Notes under the pieces: model-generated
Told to the model about the DNA's origin: nothing
What the model saw: the letters and a program-made list of their open reading frames with translations, nothing else
The model's database searches: none
Assembly (NCBI RefSeq): GCF_048403405.1
Contig: NZ_CP183129.1
DNA length: 64,000 nucleotides
Strand: one strand, 5' to 3'
DNA from: Escherichia coli
Lineage (GTDB): Bacteria; Pseudomonadota; Gammaproteobacteria; Enterobacterales; Enterobacteriaceae
Part shown: piece by piece, positions 43,350 through 53,974 of the stretch
Numbering within the stretch: position 1 is the stretch's first letter
How the letters are laid out: each line of letters opens with the position of its first letter
Position numbers and translations under genes: made by a program

Positions 43350-44458
43350 CTCCCCGCAAGGACTGACGCCAGATAGTTTCTGTCCATGGCTGCTTTTCGC
43401 ATCTTACGTCTTAACCCTGCCTTGAATACCTTATCATTCGTCAAAATATTAATAGCGATGTGCCGTATCCCTGAAAATAATTCTGCTGCGTTTCCTCTTC
43501 TTATTTTGCAGTCGTCTTCATTCATTACCACGTCCAGACGCCAGTGCAGCTTATTCTCCACGTGCCAGTGGTTTCGGATTGCTGTGGCGAACTTCTCTGC
43601 GGTTAAATCAGCAGAACTAATATAATATCTGACCGTCATTTCTGGCTCTTTCTTTTGTTCTGCTATTATTGACCGAAAGGAGACTGCCACGCATAATTTC
43701 TTCAGACCTTTCCATTCAAACGTGAAATCAATAAGTTCATCAGGGACATCGCAAACAATGTGAAGACGGATTTCTTCTCTGCCGTGACTCTTTTCACTCA
43801 TTGCGTAACTGTCATGCTCTGGATTATTTAATTCTTTCAGCGGAAATTTTTCCTCGAAGGCTTTATTTAGCCGCCCCTGGTTTCCTTTTACAGCGAATAA
43901 ATAATCACCTCCCTGTTTTTGTATCTTCTCTGCAATATCTTTCTGGCAACCCATCGCATCAGTTGTGATGATTTTTCCTTTAATATCCAGCATGTTAAGA
44001 AGTTCTGGGATAGCTGTAATTTCATTGGATTTCTCATCCGTCCTGATCTGTCCGATGACCAGACTGTGCATTGTTGAGAACGCACTAATGACATGAATCG
44101 CTCCCTTGCGGCGACTCTTGTCATAAGAATGCCGGAGTGTTTTTCCATCAATTGCGATGACGTCTTTATCATCTGAAGTATGGCAATCTCGCATCCAGTT
44201 AATAAAGCACTCGTGAAATTTTGCAGGACTGATACAGGATACAACTCTGGCGATGGTATCGTGAACAGGAATACCATTTTCAAAATCACCGTATTGTTTT
44301 AAAAAATCGAGATGTGTTTCCCCAAAATCCTCTATATCTTCCCAACCTTCCGCACCCGAAATAACGGCACAAATAGTCAACAGTAGAATATCCGATAATT
44401 TATGTTCCACTTTCCAGGCTTGTCTGTAATCGGGGATAATAGAAATATGCCCCATCAA
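43337..44458 (-). CDS. ISAs1-family transposase (Rhs-associated H-repeat protein)
   Basis: 373-aa [49 protein letters not shown]..., DDE-type; positioned downstream of the Rhs element. Confidence 0.85.
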
Positions 44459-44693
44459 TTTTTTAAGTTCTATTTTGTTCTCCTTAATTATGTAAGGAGT
44501 ATTTGATCATGTATAAGCAATAAAAAACAGCTTTAGGTAATGAGGAATATCTCAATTTTTAAACATAAAATGCGAATTATTTAGTACAAAAAAGCAGCGT
44601 TACGTGATCTTTCCCTGCACTTCACCCTAACTTTAATTTAACTTCAAGAAGTATTAAGGCCTCAATAGCGAACTTAATACTTCTTAAAGAATA

Positions 44694-45071
44694 TCACTCC
44701 TGACCAAAATCTTTCCACACTAATGCATGAGACTTTGATTTATCACCCAAAAATTTACTTACATCTTTCCAAAGTAAAGAATTGCTATCGGTCGCAGTGA
44801 CTATTGCCTCTATAAGCCCTGTAGCTACAACTGTGGCCAATTCATCATCAATCGAGACCATACCATCTTCGACATGTTTAAATATTTTTTCTCTTTCAAT
44901 ATCACCCATTTCATAAAAATTTTTTACAATCGTTTTTCCAATCTGAGAGAACAACATAACCACCGGTGGAGTTTCTGGATGCCAGTATTCATTAGCTAAT
45001 GAGACTGTCTCAGACAAAACAGTGGAAAACGATGCCATTTTTTCTATATAATTAGCAATATATTGGTTCAT
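44694..45071 (-). CDS. Putative Rhs toxin immunity protein (125 aa)
   Basis: Start codon overlaps the Rhs stop (TAATG on the minus strand); small cytoplasmic protein; AT-rich by eye like the toxin tip. Confidence 0.6.
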   Translation of the reverse strand: MNQYIANYIEKMASFSTVLSETVSLANEYWHPETPPVVMLFSQIGKTIVKNFYEMGDIEREKIFKHVEDGMVSIDDELATVVATGLIEAIVTATDSNSLLWKDVSKFLGDKSKSHALVWKDFGQE

Positions 45072-45802
45072 TACTTGCCTCCCAAAGCATTCTGTAAATC
45101 CTGAAGAACGTTTTCTGCTGCTGCTCGATCCCCTGGAGATGCTGTTGGATTCTTATCCAACCAATCCTGTAAAGCCCTTGTATAATCCTGTGCTTTCAAT
45201 ACATGTCCTCTACCACCAACTTTTTCACCTGTGGCCAATTCATAACGAACAGCATCTGCTGTGCTTCCACTTCCTACTTTTGCATTTGGCCGATAAAGAT
45301 CGTCTATAATATTTTTCAAATTTGAATCTGTAACGTCAGGTTTTCCCATCTTCTGTCGCAATTCATCTTTATACCGTTCATGCTGCATACGATCTCTTGC
45401 GCTATTCTCATCTTCTGGTCCCCATCCTCCCGGGCTTCCCGTACTGCCACCACCCAGGCAGTTCTTCTCTTCCTCCGTCAAATCCTTCCCGACATTTGGA
45501 TTCTCTTTTGATGAATCATCATTTCCAAACACGCTGGAAAAAGCACCATAGGGATCTCGCCAGAATTCCATTTGACTTTGTGCATTTAATAATTCGGCTT
45601 CACCCTGCATCTCCATACTTTTCTCAATCGCGTCCCCAACAGCCTCGCGATTGTTGTATATTATTATACCACCACCAATAACCACCGTACCGACTGCCGC
45701 ACCGACTAACATCCCCGGAGGGCCTCCTACCGAACCGATCTCTGTACCTACTTCAGAACCAGTTCCCATGGCAGTTAATGCTCCTGCGCCCAACGCCGCA
45801 CT
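45071..45802 (-). other. Rhs variable C-terminal toxin tip (about 243 aa after the DPLGL motif), family not assigned
   Basis: Begins with a Gly-rich hydrophobic stretch ([23 protein letters not shown]), then a charged domain (...[52 protein letters not shown]...). Confidence 0.55.
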
Positions 45803-48800
45803 TAATCCCAGCGGATCCAGCCGTTGCACCGGGTTCAGTGGATACGCATACAGGTTCCATCCCCCCTTCAGCCCAATCGGATCCTGGGTGATATACCTCC
45901 CCTGTAGCGGGTCATAGTACCGGTGACGGTTGTAGTACAGCCCCGACTCCTCATCATACTGCTGCCCCGGCAGACGGAGTGACTGTTGAAGGTGCTGCGC
46001 GCTGGTTTCGCCCAGCAGGTTTCCCCACTCGTCATACTCCCCGCGCCACGCCGTTTCCCCTTCCGGGCTGATAAGCGCCTGCGGCAGCCCACGGTGGTCA
46101 CAGTGGTAAAGATGAAGTTTCCTCTCCGGGATGTATTCCGCCTCCAGTTGCGCCGCCATCTGTTCCGCCGTCAACCCACACTGTGCAAGCCACTGCTGGC
46201 TTTCTTCACTCACGCTGCCCTGCCGCAGTTCCCGCTCCAGCCTCCCCAGCATCACCGCCAGCTCCGCCGGTAGCGTCACACCCGTGTCCTCCTGCAACAC
46301 CTCCGCCAGGCTACGGTGCCGCGCCTTCGCCTGTTCGCCATTCTCTGTTTCGATTCTCAGGAGCGGCGTGAAGCTCCCCGGCTGGTATACCGTCTGGATA
46401 CGCGTGGTGTCGGTCTGTACCGTCGTCAGCCTGTCGCCGTCCCACCCGTACCAGGTCACCTCCGGTTTACGCGACAGCGACATCCACCCCGTCAGGTCAC
46501 GCTCCCGCCGCCACACCCGTTTTCCCGTCCGGCGGCCCAGCGGGTCATAGAGGTAGCGGCTCTCCACCTGTGGCTCGCCGTGCTGTATCCGCGTGTAGAA
46601 CACCAGGCGGTGCTGGCTGTCGTAATGGTAGTGGTGCGTCCGCTCGTCGTGCATCCGTATCACCCCTTCCGGGATACGGTCCGTCTTCTCCGCCAGCCTG
46701 CCGTATTCATCGTAGCGGTAGACATAGTGCGCATCTTCCGTGATGCGGTTATCCGGCCACGCCGTGAAGGTGCTGTCCGGGTGCAGTTCCGGGTCCGGCA
46801 GCCGGTTTCCTGCCGGGTCCGTCGCATACGGGATATCAATGTCCAGGTTCGCTGCCGTGGTGTGGACGCCCGTCAGCCTTCCCGTGTCGCTGTAACGGTA
46901 CTCCCGGCTCTCCTGCGGGCCGCTGATGCGAATTAGCTGTCCGTTGTCGTTCCAGTCGTAGTCACGGTCAAGCTGCGGAAGGTTCAGGTGCCTGCTCCGG
47001 AGCTGGCCGCTGGTATTCCAGGCGGTGGCAAGCTCATATGCCTCCCCGCCGAAGCTGCGGGCCGTCTCACGGTGCAGCCGGTCCCGCGTGTACTCGACCA
47101 GTGGCGTACCACCCAGCTTCATTCCCGCAAGATAACCGCTGCCATACGTCAGCCACTCCACCGGCGGCAGACCGTCCGGCTCCTGACGGGTCGCCAGCCC
47201 CTGTTCGCTGTACGCGTGCTTCATCTCATGCTCCCACAGCATCTCCCCCGTCTCCGGGTTCTCCACCGTCTGCCGTTCGCCGGTCAGGCGGCCTTTATCG
47301 TCGTGGCCGTAGTGGACCGCCACACGGTGGCCTTCGCTGATATGGCTGATTTCTGTCAGCCAGCCGTGCTCATCATACTGCCACTGCTCCGCCGGGTCGC
47401 CGTTCACCGTCCGGTGCGTGATGCGGTCCGACGCATCGTAATGCCAGAGGGTGATAAGTCCCTCGTCTTCACTGTGGACAAGCTGCCCTGTGGCGCTGTA
47501 CCGGTAACGCTGCGTCCTGCCGTCAAAGCCGCGCTGCTCCGTCAGCCTGTCCACCGGGTCATACCGGAACGTGGACTGGCTGCCGTTCTCGTTGGTCAGC
47601 ACGGTGATGCGCCCGGCAGCGTCATACCCCATGCTGCGCGTCAGACCGCCTTCCGTCACACTCACCGGACGCCCGCGTTTATCATATTCGATGGTGCTGC
47701 GTTTACCGTCCGGTGATATCGTTGCTGTCAGGTCGCCTGCGGCGCTGTACTCATAACGGGTTTCACGCCCCTGCGCATCCTTCTGACTGACCAGTTGGCC
47801 TCGCGGGTTATAACTGCTGTAAGTGCTGATGCCTTCCTCCCGGTGAACGGCGATTTGTTGACCGTACCGGTCATACTCATACCGCGTCATGTACCCCGAG
47901 CAGTCCGTGAAGGCCCGAAGCTGACCGTACCGGTTTCGCGTTATTCTCCGCGTCACCCCGATTCCGTCTTCCACCGCGCCGGGCAGGCTACTGCGGGGGG
48001 AGTCATAAAACCAGCGCGTAATGTTACCGTTGCGCGAGATCTCTTCTGCCAGTCGGCCCTGACGGTCATATTTCCGGCTGCTGCGTAAACCATCCGGATA
48101 TGTCACTGAAGTCAGTTGCAACTGGCTGTTGTAACCATACCGTACCGTCCTGCCGTCCGGCAGTATCACTGAAGTCAGCTTTCCAGACGCCATATGCAGC
48201 CGGTACTCCGTCCGCCGTCCTGCCGCATCCGTCTGCGCCTTCAGCCTCCCCGCCTCATCATACTCGCTGCGGGTGATGCTCCCGTCGGCATGCTCCTTCT
48301 TCACCACACGCTTCAGGCCACCCCCGCCTTCCGTGTACAGCACCTCCCGCCGGTTCAGGCTGTCCGTGATGGTCACACGGTCCTGCCCGTACTCAAAGCG
48401 GTAGTCCAGCCCCTCCGGGTTGACCTGCTCCGTCACCCGCCCGGTATCATCATACCGGTAGCGGCTCTCCGGCCTCCCTGCATAATGGTGCGCCACCATC
48501 CGCCCGGCGTGCTCCGCATCATAAGTAAACCCGCGCACCTGCGTCCCGCTGCGGTCATACACCGCCCGCAGTTCTCCGCTGGCCGTGTACGTATAGCGCG
48601 CCAGCGGCGCAGTCGGCTGTTCATCCGGGTATGCCGGGTCGTGTGTCAGCCACACCGCCTCCAGCCGGATACCGTTATCGGCACCGTATTCTGTACCGGC
48701 GGGCAGCGTATCGGGGAAAACCTGAGAAGAGGAAACAGAACGGGGACCGGCTGGAGAAGATAAAGAAGAGGCGCGCTGTTTACGGAAGGCTTCCGCCCGC

Positions 48801-49573
48801 TGCGCCTGCGTGCTCAGCGCCAGGTGAAAACAGCGGCCCGCGCCGTCCGTCACCCCCGTCACCGCACCCGCCACGTCACCCTCTGCCGCCCGGTGGAAGG
48901 CCAGCGTCCGCCCGAAGCCGTCCACCACGCCCGTCAGCACCCGGTATGCGGGCGGCTCCGGCGGCAGCACCTCGTCCGCCCCCGGCACCCGCTCCGGCCA
49001 GCCGAGCACCAGCCACTGCCCGGTTGTGCTGGCAGCCATCATATAGATGTGTGGACTCAGACGGACCGCTTCCGGCAACGCCCGCCAGAGCCGCGCAAGC
49101 GGGTGGCCTTTGTGCTGCTGTTTCAGCACCCCGCACCGCGCCAGCCAGAACGACTCGCTGCGGCTGTAGCTTATCTCGCCGGGAAACAGGGGTTCAAAGT
49201 GAATGCTCCTGCCGCCGCTGTCGTTGAGTATCAGGCCTTCATCGCGTATCTGTAAGCGGATATCGAAGGGGGCTTTCCAGCCGGGACCAAACACCCCCAC
49301 CGGCGCGGGCGTCCTGGTCCGGTAGCTGCTGTAGGCGCGGAAAAGAACAAACGGCAGCGGGCCGGACAGTGCCAGGTCGGTTTCAGCAGGCAGCACCTTC
49401 GCTCCCAGCAGCGGGTTTACCGGATTGCCATATTTCGGCGTGGCTTCCCCTGTGGGACACACCGAGCAGGCCACACCGGTTGGCGCACCTATCAGCACCC
49501 CTGCTGAACCCTGCACAATATCCAGTCCCTTGCGGGTCATGTCACCCTGCCGCGCCGCCGGTTTTCCACCCAT
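45071..49573 (-). CDS. rhs: PAAR-domain Rhs-family T6SS effector (RhsA-like core with variable C-terminal toxin)
   Basis: 1500 aa; N-terminal PAAR-like [13 protein letters not shown]...[18 protein letters not shown]; YD repeats; core end ...[42 protein letters not shown]. Confidence 0.9.
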
Positions 49574-49648: not shown

Positions 49649-51790
49649 TCAAAATTGCCGCATATCCGGCATTCCGGGGGGTAAATCTTTCGGCACAGGC
49701 GCATCCGGTACAGGTTGTGTGGCACCACAGTTCCAGTTAATCACCGGCGCATCACCGTTCACATCCGACTCTCCTTCCAGATGAATGTGCGTACCATTGA
49801 GAAATATGCTTCCGTCCTTCGTCAGCACCAACCTTGCCTTACCGCAGCAGAGTTCCAGATGCTCACCGGCAGAATAAACTGCTGTTTGTCCGGTGTTTTC
49901 CTTCATCGTCTTGCCCACCGAGAAGGTGACGTTATTCCCTACATTGACGCTGTAGCCCATTCCCACCATCAGTGATTTATGCAGCCCTACCTGTGAGGAC
50001 TGCAACAACGCCACCGAGGTATTCATGATGCCGCCTACCGTCGTCTGGTAAGCCACGCCCACCGTCAGCGCACGAATGATCCCCACCTTTTCAACCTGGT
50101 TTGAACCCACTTTGACAATCTGGTTGCTGCCTACCGTTTCCACCTGGTTGACACCAACCGTCTGTATCTGATTAACGCCAATGTTCTGGATCTGGTTATT
50201 GGTAACGGTGATCGCCTGGTTGTTACCTATTTTTTCGGCATGGTTGTTTATCACATCAGTGGTGCGGTTATTCAGCACCTCGGTGTTCATGTTCTTCTGC
50301 GCGTGGATGTAGACCTGTTCTTTCCCTGTCGCATCGTCAAACTTCAGTTCATTAAACCCGCTGCCCTTATAGGTTTTTGAACGAATGGTCATCTGCGTCT
50401 TTGTTCCCGGCAGGCTGCCGGGGGTGCGGTTTTCCTGGTGGTAGGTGCGCCCCATAATAATCGGCTGGTCCGGATCGCCGTTGAGGAAGTCCACAATGAC
50501 TTCCTGACCCACACGCGGTATCGCCAGGTTGCCAAAGCCGGTGCCTGCCCACGCCTGTGCCACACGGATCCAGCATGAACTGTCCTGGTTTGACGGGTTA
50601 TAGCGGTCCCAGTTAAATTTCACCCGCACGCGGCCATGTTCATCACAGAAGATTTCTTCTCCTGCCGGTCCCGTCACGACGGCGCTCTGCGGGCCGTCCA
50701 CCAGCGGTTTCAGCAACGGCTGTGGCCGCCATGTTCTGTCTGCCGGTATTACCGCAAAGTGGTTATTCAGCGTGGTACCTGAACCCCTGCGTCCCGGCAC
50801 CGCCTGCGGCTGCTCGCCGTGCAGTTCACTTGCCACCACCTGCCATTCCCGGTTCAGGTTCGCCTGCGGATGCCCCGTCAGCGCAATTCGCCGTCCCGGC
50901 CATATCTCCGGCGAACGGCTTGTTCCGCGCGCCACTTCTGCGTTGTTTCGCCAGCCATCCATCTGCCAGCAGGCAAAGTTCTGCCCGTGGGCACCCTTGA
51001 AACGTCCGGGGTAGTCATACACTTCATACTGTGTGCGCTGGTAATCCTGGTGCTGGCCTTCCTGATCAAAACGCCCTGCCCAGCCGGGTCGTTTAAAGGT
51101 GTAGTCTTTGGTCACCACGGAAGATGGGCGGATTTGTGCGCTGTAGAGGAACTGGCTGATGCATAGGGTGCTCACCTCGGTACGGGTGTTCGGATTCCAG
51201 GGGATCTCAAAGGACTCCGGCAGATAACGCACGGTGTCGCACAGGACCAGGCTCTGGTCGGTACTTTTTTGCGCGTGCTCCTCATAAAAGAAGATGCCTT
51301 CCTCCGCCGCCATCCGGCACAGGAAATCGTAATCGGTTTCGCCGTACTGGACACAAAACTCACGGGAAGGATGCGGCTCGCTGAACAGCGGACTCCACTC
51401 GGTCACCCCGTTTTCTTTCAGGATCGTCGCGAGTATGCTTTCGATGTCCTCATTCTGGAAGATACGGAAGTTCTGGCGCAGCCCTGTGCGCCACAGCGGT
51501 GGGCACACCTTCATGCTGTACAGCATCTGGTTTTTGTCGTTCTCCCCCAGTTCAAACCAGGTCACCACACCTTTCACCCGGCGCTGTACGTCATCGCCCT
51601 GCCATACCGTCAGGTAGGCCATTTTGTCCAGCACCTGCGCAAATTCAAGGGAGAGAAACTGCTGGCTGACCAGAGAGAGATCGAGGGAAAAGAGCGAAGA
51701 GAGTGACTGGTTCAGATGAAAGGAGACCACCGCAAACGCGTCCGGTGGCAGGCCGTCCACTTCCAGCGTGAAACGTAATCCGGTTGACAT
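49649..51790 (-). CDS. vgrG: T6SS spike protein VgrG (TssI)
   Basis: 713 aa; gp27/gp5-like; beta-helical repeats (...NNQIQNIGVNQIQTVGVNQVETVGSNQIVKVGSNQVEKVG...). Confidence 0.9.
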   Translation of the reverse strand: MSTGLRFTLEVDGLPPDAFAVVSFHLNQSLSSLFSLDLSLVSQQFLSLEFAQVLDKMAYLTVWQGDDVQRRVKGVVTWFELGENDKNQMLYSMKVCPPLWRTGLRQNFRIFQNEDIESILATILKENGVTEWSPLFSEPHPSREFCVQYGETDYDFLCRMAAEEGIFFYEEHAQKSTDQSLVLCDTVRYLPESFEIPWNPNTRTEVSTLCISQFLYSAQIRPSSVVTKDYTFKRPGWAGRFDQEGQHQDYQRTQYEVYDYPGRFKGAHGQNFACWQMDGWRNNAEVARGTSRSPEIWPGRRIALTGHPQANLNREWQVVASELHGEQPQAVPGRRGSGTTLNNHFAVIPADRTWRPQPLLKPLVDGPQSAVVTGPAGEEIFCDEHGRVRVKFNWDRYNPSNQDSSCWIRVAQAWAGTGFGNLAIPRVGQEVIVDFLNGDPDQPIIMGRTYHQENRTPGSLPGTKTQMTIRSKTYKGSGFNELKFDDATGKEQVYIHAQKNMNTEVLNNRTTDVINNHAEKIGNNQAITVTNNQIQNIGVNQIQTVGVNQVETVGSNQIVKVGSNQVEKVGIIRALTVGVAYQTTVGGIMNTSVALLQSSQVGLHKSLMVGMGYSVNVGNNVTFSVGKTMKENTGQTAVYSAGEHLELCCGKARLVLTKDGSIFLNGTHIHLEGESDVNGDAPVINWNCGATQPVPDAPVPKDLPPGMPDMRQF

Positions 51791-51999
51791 AGCAACCTCC
51801 GGGTTTAAGGAAAAACAGACAGTTCGCTGTTAAAGCGGCTGTAACAGTACAGTGTTACGCTTGCGTTCAGGCACGCTACCGCCGAAGTTTCCGGCATCCG
51901 CCATCTCCCGTGAACGTAACCCCTTACTGACAACCTTTCTTTTTACGGCGTAATACAAAAACAGCATCCGGCCTAATAGCCGGATGCTGTTGGCTTAAC

Positions 52000-52518
52000 T
52001 TATGCTTCCAGCGGTGCGCGCCAGTCGTCGGCACCGGAGGTGCCAGACTTGACGTGTTCCCACTCTATTTTGCGGTAGGCCAGTGAAACTTCGAGCAACT
52101 GGGTGAACTCGCGTTTCGCCGGATCCTGGCAATGCGGCATATGCAGTTTCATATCGACAATCGTCGAATCGGTCAGGCGGGTGGTGAAATAATGCTCCTG
52201 TTTGCCTTCCACAGAGGTACGCCACCAGTGAAGTTCAGTGGTTGGCAGCATTTCGCCGGAGGCCAGTGCGTTGTACATCAGCGGAACAGCTTTGTTCAGC
52301 GCCACGGTAAAAATGAACGGCTTGTGAGCACGCTGACCCGCAGGCTGGCCGGACTGAGGATCGGTCGGGACAGTAACGTTATGCAGGAATTCCTGCACCA
52401 GCATCTCGTCTTCGTGCCCCTGCACATAGATGTTGCCGACAGAATCAGCGGTAAATGCACCTGCAGTAATATTTCCCTGGGTCTGACCAGTGATGGAGAT
52501 ATAACACGGTGTTGGCAT
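52000..52518 (-). CDS. hcp: T6SS tube protein Hcp (TssD)
   Basis: 172-aa ORF MPTPCYISITGQTQGNITAGAF... Confidence 0.9.
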   Translation of the reverse strand: MPTPCYISITGQTQGNITAGAFTADSVGNIYVQGHEDEMLVQEFLHNVTVPTDPQSGQPAGQRAHKPFIFTVALNKAVPLMYNALASGEMLPTTELHWWRTSVEGKQEHYFTTRLTDSTIVDMKLHMPHCQDPAKREFTQLLEVSLAYRKIEWEHVKSGTSGADDWRAPLEA

Positions 52519-53214
52519 TTGTAAACTCCTTGTTAACGTGGTTAATTACTACTTACAATGACCTGCCGTTAATCCCAGACAGGCAGATGCAACTCACTTC
52601 ACGGAACCGCATCATTTTTCAGTATTTTTTACATACAAACCGAGCTAGAATTTACGGTTGTCGTAAAAACTATTTTTAAAATCATTAAATCTCTTATTCA
52701 GCAATAAGTTAATAATATATATCTGGATAACCATACCCAACTGTTCAAAGTCCGTATTGCCTCCATAAAATGGCCAAAGCTGAATCATGAATAAATATTG
52801 TATTTATCCTTTCTGAATTATCATTTTGATAATTTTTGAGATATTCCTTAAAAATACCCACTTAATCAATCACAAAACAAATATATAAACAAGCAATCAT
52901 CAGATTAGCTTATGTTTAATGAAATTATTATATAATTCAATAAGTTACATAAAAACTCTATATTTAAATTATTGCCATAATACACCTGACGCGAATTTCG
53001 AAGGTTCACACAATCTATTTAACGCTTGCAGAATACCTCTCTTTACGATCGATAAAAAGTCCTTTTCTTATTTATTTTGAAGCGTAGAATGCGGGGTGAT
53101 GAAGGAGTGGTGATTTTATTTTCACCGCCATTAAGGCGGCATTGCCGATATTTTTTTGCGGTACAAATATGCCGTGTTCATGGCCTGTACGAGATAACAT
53201 GACGGATCACTTTT
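52519..53214. promoter_or_regulatory. AT-rich divergent intergenic control region between hcp-vgrG-rhs (-) and tssB operon (+)
   Basis: About 700 bp non-coding, very AT-rich with A/T tracts; flanked by divergent operon starts. Confidence 0.5.
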
Positions 53215-53715
53215 ATGAGCAAAAAATTTGAAGGCAGCGTCGCGCCTCGCGAGCGTATAAATATATCCTATGTCCCGAAGACGGACGGCCAGACGGCTGA
53301 AGTGGAGCTTCCGCTTAACATGCTCGTTGTCGGCGATACCGGAAATACGCAGGAGACATCCCCACTGGATGAACGTCAGGCAGTTTCCGTTAACAAGCAC
53401 AATTTCGGTGCGGTGATGGCTGAAGCAGCCATTGGCCTCAATTTTACCGTCCCCGCCACGCTGAAGGGAAGCACAACGGACGATGAACTGAATGTGGCGC
53501 TGAATATCAAGTCACTGGATGATTTTTCACCGGACAGCGTGGCCCGGCAGGTTCCGGAAGTTAATAAATTGCTGGAATTGCGTGAAGCACTGACTGCGCT
53601 GAAGGGGCCGATGGGCAACCTTCCGGCATTCCGTACCCAGCTCCAGGCATTGCTGGAAAATGAGGAGTCCCGCGAGCAGTTGCTCAAAGAAATCGGCCAA
53701 GTGAGTGGGAAATAA
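53215..53715 (+). CDS. tssB: T6SS contractile sheath small subunit TssB
   Basis: 166 aa; motif RERINISYVPKTDGQTAEVELPLNMLVVGD. Confidence 0.88.
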   Translation: MSKKFEGSVAPRERINISYVPKTDGQTAEVELPLNMLVVGDTGNTQETSPLDERQAVSVNKHNFGAVMAEAAIGLNFTVPATLKGSTTDDELNVALNIKSLDDFSPDSVARQVPEVNKLLELREALTALKGPMGNLPAFRTQLQALLENEESREQLLKEIGQVSGK

Positions 53716-53749: not shown

Positions 53750-53974
53750 ATGGCGGCACACAAAAATATCTCCGGGAAAAACCCCCTCTCTGACGAAGAC
53801 ATTTTGCAGGCGGTTTACCGGGTATGTTTCAGCCCGTCCGGTGAAATCAACCGGGATGGCGTGGATGCGCTGATTACAACACTGGATCGCCGTATCAGTG
53901 ATCTATTGGATGAGATTATCCATTTTTGTGAGTTTCAGCAGAGCGCGTCGCACTGGCAGCGCGTACTTCACTGA
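53750..53974 (+). CDS. Hypothetical small protein between tssB and tssC
   Basis: ORF MAAHKNISGKNPLSDEDILQAVYRVCFSPSGEINRDGVDALITTLDRRISDLLDEIIHF...; conserved-looking operon position but no family recognised. Confidence 0.35.
   Translation: MAAHKNISGKNPLSDEDILQAVYRVCFSPSGEINRDGVDALITTLDRRISDLLDEIIHFCEFQQSASHWQRVLH

Follow-up and report, generated by a model that had tools for sequence, protein, structure and literature searches.

The 696-bp AT-rich spacer between the divergent genes hcp and tssB is very probably the already described bidirectional, H-NS-silenced promoter region of a T6SS that is widespread in E. coli and Shigella. Its nature and its H-NS dependence have been published for near-identical sequences, and as the product of a genome scan it is nothing new. 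What this analysis or the literature establishes is the anatomy of the region, its orthology, that the orthologous region is silenced in an hns-dependent way, and that Fur control is absent.

Genomic setting of the spacer

The window, the whole stretch of 64,000 nucleotides that was analysed, is E. coli DNA. Its T6SS island adjoins yafV, ivy and fadE, and the rest is ordinary chromosome carrying pao, proBA, phoE, crl, gpt, dinB and yafNOP. The spacer and its neighbours are as follows.

52519-53214, no strand: hcp-tssB spacer, 696 bp, AT-rich, divergent promoter/regulatory region, named t6sP in the EHEC literature
52601-53000: AT-rich core of the spacer, 400 bp, GC 0.27
52000-52518, minus strand: hcp, ORF of the Hcp tube protein (Pfam T6SS_HCP, E 5e-31), head of the hcp-vgrG-rhs arm
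53215-53715, plus strand: tssB, ORF of the small sheath subunit (Pfam T6SS_VipA, E 1e-51; tssB in RefSeq), head of the structural operon
49649-51790: vgrG, past hcp and followed by a 1500-aa PAAR-Rhs gene
Structural arm, in order: tssB, small ORF, tssC, tssE, tssF, tssG, tagH, tssJ, tssK, tssL, clpV, vasI, tssA, tssM, vasL, hcp

The sequence-only reading had described 52519-53214 as very AT-rich and non-coding. These ends are exact, with the hcp ORF ending at 52518 and the tssB ORF beginning at 53215. The composition holds as well: the spacer has a GC content of 0.326, compared with 0.528 for the 64-kb window, no other stretch of 696 bp there is lower, and just 0.04% of stretches of this length are equally low. 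RefSeq annotates nothing in the spacer and its ORFs of at least 30 aa are broken in relatives, in agreement with a non-coding tract.

The flanking genes diverge as the first genes of two T6SS arms. The window hcp is labelled “Hcp family T6SS effector” in RefSeq, and tssB is followed by tssC, tssE, tssF and the remaining structural genes. The arms form two back-to-back transcription units, hcp-vgrG-rhs and tssB through tssM to a second hcp. The gene order of the island agrees with the EDL933 gene table, and no regulator gene is annotated within the island. In EDL933 the island is O-island 7, and its T6SS is named T6SS-2 in the literature (PMC13141884; PMC5363993).

Megablast located the spacer in 2264-2269 of 5426 complete E. 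coli genomes (~42%), at one place per genome, with 95-100% identity and almost always on the chromosome. At least 80% of the spacer is held by 2228 complete E. coli genomes. The closest complete genome is that of strain 4621, a human blood isolate, which is 99.98% identical to the window where aligned. Strain 4621 (L001, 9968-17174) carries the IS66-family element ISCro1 within the C-terminal region of Rhs; the window has no such insertion, and its PAAR-Rhs gene (45071-49573, minus strand) is intact at 1500 aa. Directly downstream of the rhs gene lies a stretch (44369-45064, GC 0.33) that ranks second in the window for AT content. Toxin-tip and immunity modules usually sit just downstream of an rhs gene.

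The hcp-vgrG spacer (51791-51999) contains a strong terminator-like hairpin at 51960-51991 on the minus strand, with 14 pairs (8 G-C) followed by a T run, which begins 8 nt past the hcp stop. This hairpin fits the published description of EHEC “h3R region I”, a region described in 2026 as separating hcp and vgrG into distinct operons (PMC13141884).

Orthologous regions and their silencing by H-NS

The spacer is 97.0-97.3% identical to those of O157:H7 86-24 and SS52 across the full 696 bp, and the window Hcp has the same protein accession as the Hcp of O157 86-24. In EHEC EDL933, the bidirectional promoter t6sP lies between tssB (Z0264) and hcp3/hcp2 (Z0266) in O-island 7 (PMC13141884). The O157:H7 EDL933 region and the window spacer have in common the length of 696 bp, the flanking genes, Hcp and the hairpin after hcp. 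They differ by ~20 substitutions and in the predicted tssB -10, which is TAGAAT here and TAAAAT in O157, and the window strain, unlike the source of t6sP, is not EHEC. The earlier description of the tract as a divergent control region is borne out experimentally, as this 97%-identical O157 spacer has been used as the bidirectional promoter t6sP (PMC13141884).

In EHEC, deletion of hns raised z0264 (tssB) 60-fold, an effect reversed by an hns plasmid, while none of the many culture conditions tried was inducing (PMC5363993). Placed between gfp and mCherry, t6sP was silent in the wild type and active both ways in the hns mutant, with the stronger activity in the hcp direction; both arms came on once t6sP was exchanged for PBAD/Ptac (PMC13141884). 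The hns mutants made mRNA and little protein, and published transcription-factor predictions for t6sP explained nothing (PMC13141884). The same paper states that H-NS binding has been determined, citing Wan 2017 and Kim 2022; the text of Wan 2017 contains no EMSA.

Similar results come from APEC T6SS2, where inactivation of hns raised clpV2, hcp2A and hcp2B, serum induced expression, and iron and Fur had no effect (PMC5874247). This system (hcp2B-vgrG2 / vipA2-hcp2A) shares gene order and divergent layout with the window island, and it is taken as equivalent because of this gene order and because its authors equate it with the EDL933 cluster (PMC5874247). Derepression in both directions by hns deletion in EHEC (PMC5363993; PMC13141884), together with the APEC T6SS2 results (PMC5874247), agrees with the nucleoid-protein silencing that the sequence-only reading had proposed.

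GFP fusions to the spacer, made in both orientations, showed only low activity in S. sonnei (PMC10924462). The published reporter primers match window positions 52519-52538 and 53195-53214 exactly, that is, both spacer ends. Native activity of the S. sonnei regulatory region was low and promoter replacement was needed; unlike the window island, the S. sonnei cluster carries inactivating mutations (PMC10924462).

A further likeness concerns principle only. An enterobacterial T6SS kept silent by H-NS at AT-rich promoter DNA is also found in Salmonella, where H-NS reportedly silences the SPI-6 T6SS (Brunet et al. 2015); that cluster and its layout differ from those of the window island.

Conservation of the spacer within E. 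coli and across genera

Relatives were collected by a TssB-based scan of species genomes (4 loci) and by an 18-mer scan of metagenomes, which supplied the wider family. The ten family members include E. albertii, Yokenella regensburgei, Citrobacter youngae, a second E. coli T6SS type and five metagenome loci, and the searches also yielded ~60 E. coli-type alleles. In all family members, hcp and tssB diverge and lie 569-709 bp apart, with a spacer GC content of 0.29-0.34. Identity to the window spacer is 0.69 in E. albertii and 0.50-0.53 in Yokenella and Citrobacter, the range of 0.50-0.69 being that of five relatives compared pairwise with the window. Because identity drops to ~50% while 569-709 bp and 29-34% GC persist, spacer length and composition are what is kept across genera, plus a few sequence islands. 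In the family alignment, these islands fall on the two -10-like elements and on the ribosome-binding sites.

Within E. coli, the segments 52519-52591, 52616-52668 and 53166-53214 are invariant among 44 distinct alleles. Variation is concentrated in 52919-53018, the most polymorphic part (centre-right), and in 53069-53168; E. albertii lacks ~43 bp in the centre-right part of the spacer. Nucleotide diversity (pi) over 12 haplotypes was 0.011 in the spacer compared with 0.019 and 0.038 at third codon positions of hcp and tssB, respectively. These values come from a clean 12-haplotype set; a 50-haplotype tssB set was unreliable, with truncated or divergent contigs inflating first- and second-position diversity. 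Since its diversity is below that of the third codon positions of both genes, the spacer is under some constraint.

The polymorphism of 52919-53018 and the shorter E. albertii sequence at that place would also be expected of a functionless AT-rich remnant, either a decayed mobile element or a junction of island assembly, with the real promoters elsewhere; accessory islands do accumulate AT-rich junk. Against this, the spacer is single-copy in each genome, its length and composition are kept across genera and its diversity is below that of synonymous sites. Moreover, in hns mutants the cloned spacer is sufficient to drive reporters, and its replacement activates both arms (PMC13141884). A repeat search of the spacer found no noteworthy terminal or direct repeats, only short AT-rich chance pairs. 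A remnant of this kind is highly improbable.

A hidden small protein or small RNA gene is another reading that conservation can address. An old EDL933 annotation had an ORF, Z0265, between tssB (Z0264) and hcp (Z0266), the literature has used the wording “divergent promoter between z0264 and z0265”, and seven ORFs of 34-56 aa can be read in the spacer. None of the seven is conserved, however: stops or frameshifts interrupt them in E. albertii and beyond, and four of them already in O157. Nothing in the spacer is annotated in RefSeq and no significant fold was found there, and an Rfam search of 51700-53700 gave no match at E<=1. The spacer is very unlikely to hide such a gene.

The second, divergent T6SS occurs in 29 complete E. 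coli genomes and has the layout hcp / 682-bp AT-rich spacer / tssB. In one example (L007, E. coli 21AR0303, NZ_CM132268.1, 3482-5189), the TssB DNA is 62% identical. The other arm of this second system has a DUF2169 adaptor and a PAAR-like effector.

The small “hypothetical” ORF between tssB and tssC in the window (53750-53974, plus strand, 74 aa) is a partial copy of the TssC N-terminus: 40 aa of its product align with TssC residues 63-102 at 43% identity (BLASTP E 2e-9). E. albertii, Yokenella and C. youngae have kept it at 44-52% (tblastn), but the second E. coli T6SS type, in which tssB and tssC abut, lacks it. No Pfam family was assigned to the 74-aa product. This ORF may be relevant to a published claim that tssB and tssC are transcribed separately.

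Predicted promoters of the two arms

Consensus scans and the family alignment gave the following candidate elements.

52519-52545: hcp ribosome-binding region, a conserved island in the family alignment
52526-52531, minus strand: hcp Shine-Dalgarno, AAGGAG in the mRNA, 7 nt before AUG; region invariant in 44 alleles and conserved in 10 of 10 family members
52786-52799: conserved block CATGAATnAATATT, which holds the hcp -10-like element; GAAT and ATATT identical in 10 of 10 family members
52795-52824, minus strand: predicted hcp core promoter from the consensus scan, -35 ATGATA (52824..52819) and -10 TACAAT (52802..52797)
53031-53067, plus strand: conserved block upstream of the tssB promoter in the family alignment, nearly invariant in 44 E. 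coli alleles
53031-53036, plus strand: GAATAC, within the conserved block upstream of tssB
53049-53058, plus strand: TCGATAAAAA, 8/10 match to the H-NS motif, in the same block
53049-53060, plus strand: TCGATAAAAAGT, a conserved island that includes the A-tract AAAAAGT (53054-53060)
53062-53067, plus strand: CTTTTC, invariant non-consensus hexamer at the tssB -35 position
53085-53090, plus strand: predicted tssB -10, TAGAAT; TAAAAT in most E. coli alleles
53179-53214, plus strand: tssB-proximal leader, conserved CATGGCCTG (53179-53187) and Shine-Dalgarno ACGGAU

On the hcp side, ATGATA lies 16 bp upstream of TACAAT, and the -10 may alternatively be read in the register CAATAT (52800..52795). 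The corresponding sequence in other family members is TATAAT or TAATAT. A T>C change at 52801, found in 3 of the 44 E. coli alleles, would damage the TACAAT register at its key A and leave the CAATAT register unharmed. Transcription would start near 52786-52791 and give a leader of ~270 nt; a predicted leader of this length is unusually long and counts against the promoter map.

For tssB, the -10 site reads TAGAAT, TAAAAT, TATCAT or TATGAT in the ten sequences, with the T, the A and the final T constant. These are the most important bases of a -10 element. The only polymorphism inside the hexamer within E. coli is G/A at 53087. The predicted start lies near 53096-53098, with a leader of ~118 nt, and the GGA of the Shine-Dalgarno (53204-53206), 8 nt ahead of AUG, is conserved across the family.

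Promoter-like sites were not in excess in a simple consensus scan, with 5 in the spacer and 3.2 +/- 1.8 in shuffles. The chance that the exact positions of both predicted promoters are right is put at about even. A dedicated TSS-mapping study has been published (Kim, Lee & Yoon 2022, J Microbiol 60:928).

One metagenome allele, L085 (OHBD01001909.1), has a 36-bp deletion corresponding to window positions 53075-53110, by which the predicted tssB -10 and start are lost; this allele may have been silenced naturally.

A perfect 8-bp inverted repeat, AATTATCA-ttt-TGATAATT (52816-52834), overlaps -35-like hexamers of promoter-like sites on both strands. The repeat is conserved in E. coli and O157 and imperfect in E. 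albertii, and no regulator consensus matched it above chance.

Operator scans and the case for other regulators

Consensus matches were compared with those in 200 dinucleotide shuffles of the spacer. None of the scans for Fur (19-mer and 7-1-7), the H-NS motif, sigma-54, sigma-28, IHF or CRP exceeded the expectation from composition, and the same was found for PhoP, RcsAB, Fis, OmpR, ArcA and FNR. With Fur, sigma-54, CRP, PhoP, IHF and H-NS-motif scans no better than shuffles, the earlier caution that no specific operator could be asserted from sequence was well placed. A BProm-predicted CRP site in the S. sonnei region (PMC10924462) is likewise unsupported by the CRP consensus scan of the window spacer.

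The H-NS motif scan that had been suggested returned four spacer matches with 2 mismatches (8/10) to the TCGATAAATT-like motif; the matches are no more frequent than in composition-matched shuffles, 92% of which equal this result. As motif matches are at the level of chance for this composition, the case for H-NS rests on composition and published genetics and not on the motif. On composition, the tract is as AT-rich relative to its surroundings as xenogeneic silencing calls for, its 400-bp core having a GC content of 0.27 compared with 0.53 for the window, the lowest in 64 kb.

The EAEC Sci-1 promoter, which like the window spacer is regulatory DNA upstream of the tssB gene of an E. coli T6SS, reportedly has a Fur box and Dam sites that overlap (Brunet et al. 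2011). An iron/Fur switch with Dam methylation, as at EAEC Sci-1 and APEC T6SS1, would place a Fur box over the promoter and link expression to an epigenetic state at GATC. The spacer does contain GATAAT-like hexamers, the perfect 8-bp inverted repeat at 52816-52834 and two GATC sites (53047 and 53205), and another E. coli T6SS is known to be under the control of Fur (PMC5874247). The best 19-bp Fur-box match nevertheless has 6 mismatches and is equalled by 38% of composition-matched shuffles, and the 7-1-7 form is worse, equalled by 73%. The GATC at 53047 is missing in E. albertii, where the inverted repeat is also imperfect. Unlike EAEC Sci-1, which is a different T6SS type, the window spacer thus has no credible Fur box and its GATC sites are not conserved. 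The Fur scan proposed by the sequence-only reading was accordingly negative, with no Fur box found, and APEC showed neither an iron nor a Fur effect: clpV2 and hcp2B were unregulated by iron limitation or Fur (PMC5874247). A switch of this type has only a very slight chance of applying here. Assignment to the Fur-repressed T6SS promoter type was rejected, as no Fur box overlaps the core promoter.

Sigma-54 promoters served by a dedicated enhancer-binding protein, as in the large Vibrio cholerae cluster with VasH, were also considered. The gene order tssB-tssC-tssE-tssF-tssG-tagH-tssJ-tssK-tssL-clpV-vasI-tssA-tssM-vasL resembles that of the V. cholerae cluster. However, a vasH-like regulator is absent between clpV and vasI and elsewhere in the annotated island, and the best match to TGGCAC-N5-TTGCW has 4 of the 11 specified bases mismatched, with every shuffle as good. 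Control of this kind has next to no probability. The sigma-54/bEBP promoter type was rejected in the same way, the spacer having no -24/-12 match above chance and the island no annotated enhancer-binding protein gene.

Possible control in the mRNA leaders

One further candidate feature lies in the hcp leader.

52563-52582, minus strand: hcp-leader hairpin, mRNA CUGUC-UGGGAUUAAC-GGCAG, with GGA in the loop; a possible mRNA-level element on weak evidence

All 10 family members have a predicted hairpin at this position, and in 7 of the 10 GGA lies in or at the loop. In E. albertii the pairing is maintained only via G.U pairs on the mRNA strand. Its loop differs by one base between clades, and an ungapped alignment is therefore out of register. 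The loop GGA (52573-52575) lies ~47 nt upstream of the AAGGAG Shine-Dalgarno. Two GGA sites at such a spacing are a classic CsrA arrangement.

These features raise an extra layer of control that would not exclude silencing by H-NS. CsrA would bind the GGA in the loop and the Shine-Dalgarno GGA of the hcp leader, and perhaps the tssB leader, and would block translation or destabilise the mRNA, which would explain why hns mutants contain mRNA and little protein. The family-wide placement of the GGA-loop hairpin and the invariance of the leader-proximal 73 nt in 44 alleles are consistent with this proposal. So are a report, as cited in PMC13141884, that CsrA acts negatively on hcp3 and tssC, the ANGGA motifs 8 nt from start codons (PMC13141884) and the mRNA without much protein in hns mutants (PMC13141884).

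The structural evidence, however, is weak. RNAalifold gave no supported consensus structure, and thus no consensus hairpin, for the hcp and tssB leaders, and folding energies of the hcp leader were no better than those of shuffles and not significant (z -0.22 for the full and z -0.62 for the proximal leader). The tssB leader reached z -2.1, but its hairpins sit in an Escherichia-specific insertion. Double compensatory changes are absent from the hcp-leader hairpin. In addition, GGA in a Shine-Dalgarno is commonplace, and as the hcp start is only predicted, the hairpin may lie outside the transcript of the main promoter. Binding of CsrA to these sites is a tentative proposal with perhaps one chance in a handful of being right, and CsrA control would, as a doubtful addition, supplement the explanation by H-NS and not replace it.

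Model of silencing and significance

From the composition and from the orthologous regions, we infer the positions of the promoters, direct H-NS binding on the window sequence and a role for the AT-rich core. The core at 52601-53000 would be a putative platform on which H-NS binds and spreads. The two units are probably served by separate sigma-70 promoters, each with a recognisable -10 but a poor -35. H-NS would nucleate and polymerise on the ~400-bp, 27% GC core between and over the two promoters, and the polymer would exclude or trap RNA polymerase in both directions, leaving the T6SS silent in laboratory culture.

H-NS is not the whole story, because hns deletion alone yields little protein and no inducing condition is known. 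Relief of silencing would take more than the loss of H-NS; a putative activator or anti-silencer probably takes part, and the leaders may also be controlled at the mRNA level. The conserved islands might conceivably be docking sites of such an anti-silencer or activator combined with a CsrA-type translational gate, which would make the spacer more than passive H-NS bait, though this is rather unlikely. The islands meant are the tssB -10 with its invariant -35-position hexamer, AAAAAGT and GAATAC, CATGAATnAATATT upstream of hcp, and the GGA hairpin. If this were true, it would explain why no laboratory signal, nor hns deletion, fully activates this T6SS.

The practical additions made here are small, namely a comparative map of conserved elements and the finding of length-and-composition conservation across genera. 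A precise map of the conserved elements in the spacer helps in the design of reporter fusions and promoter mutants. About four in ten sequenced E. coli, EHEC, APEC and Shigella sonnei among them, have this T6SS, and the spacer is where its switching on is decided.
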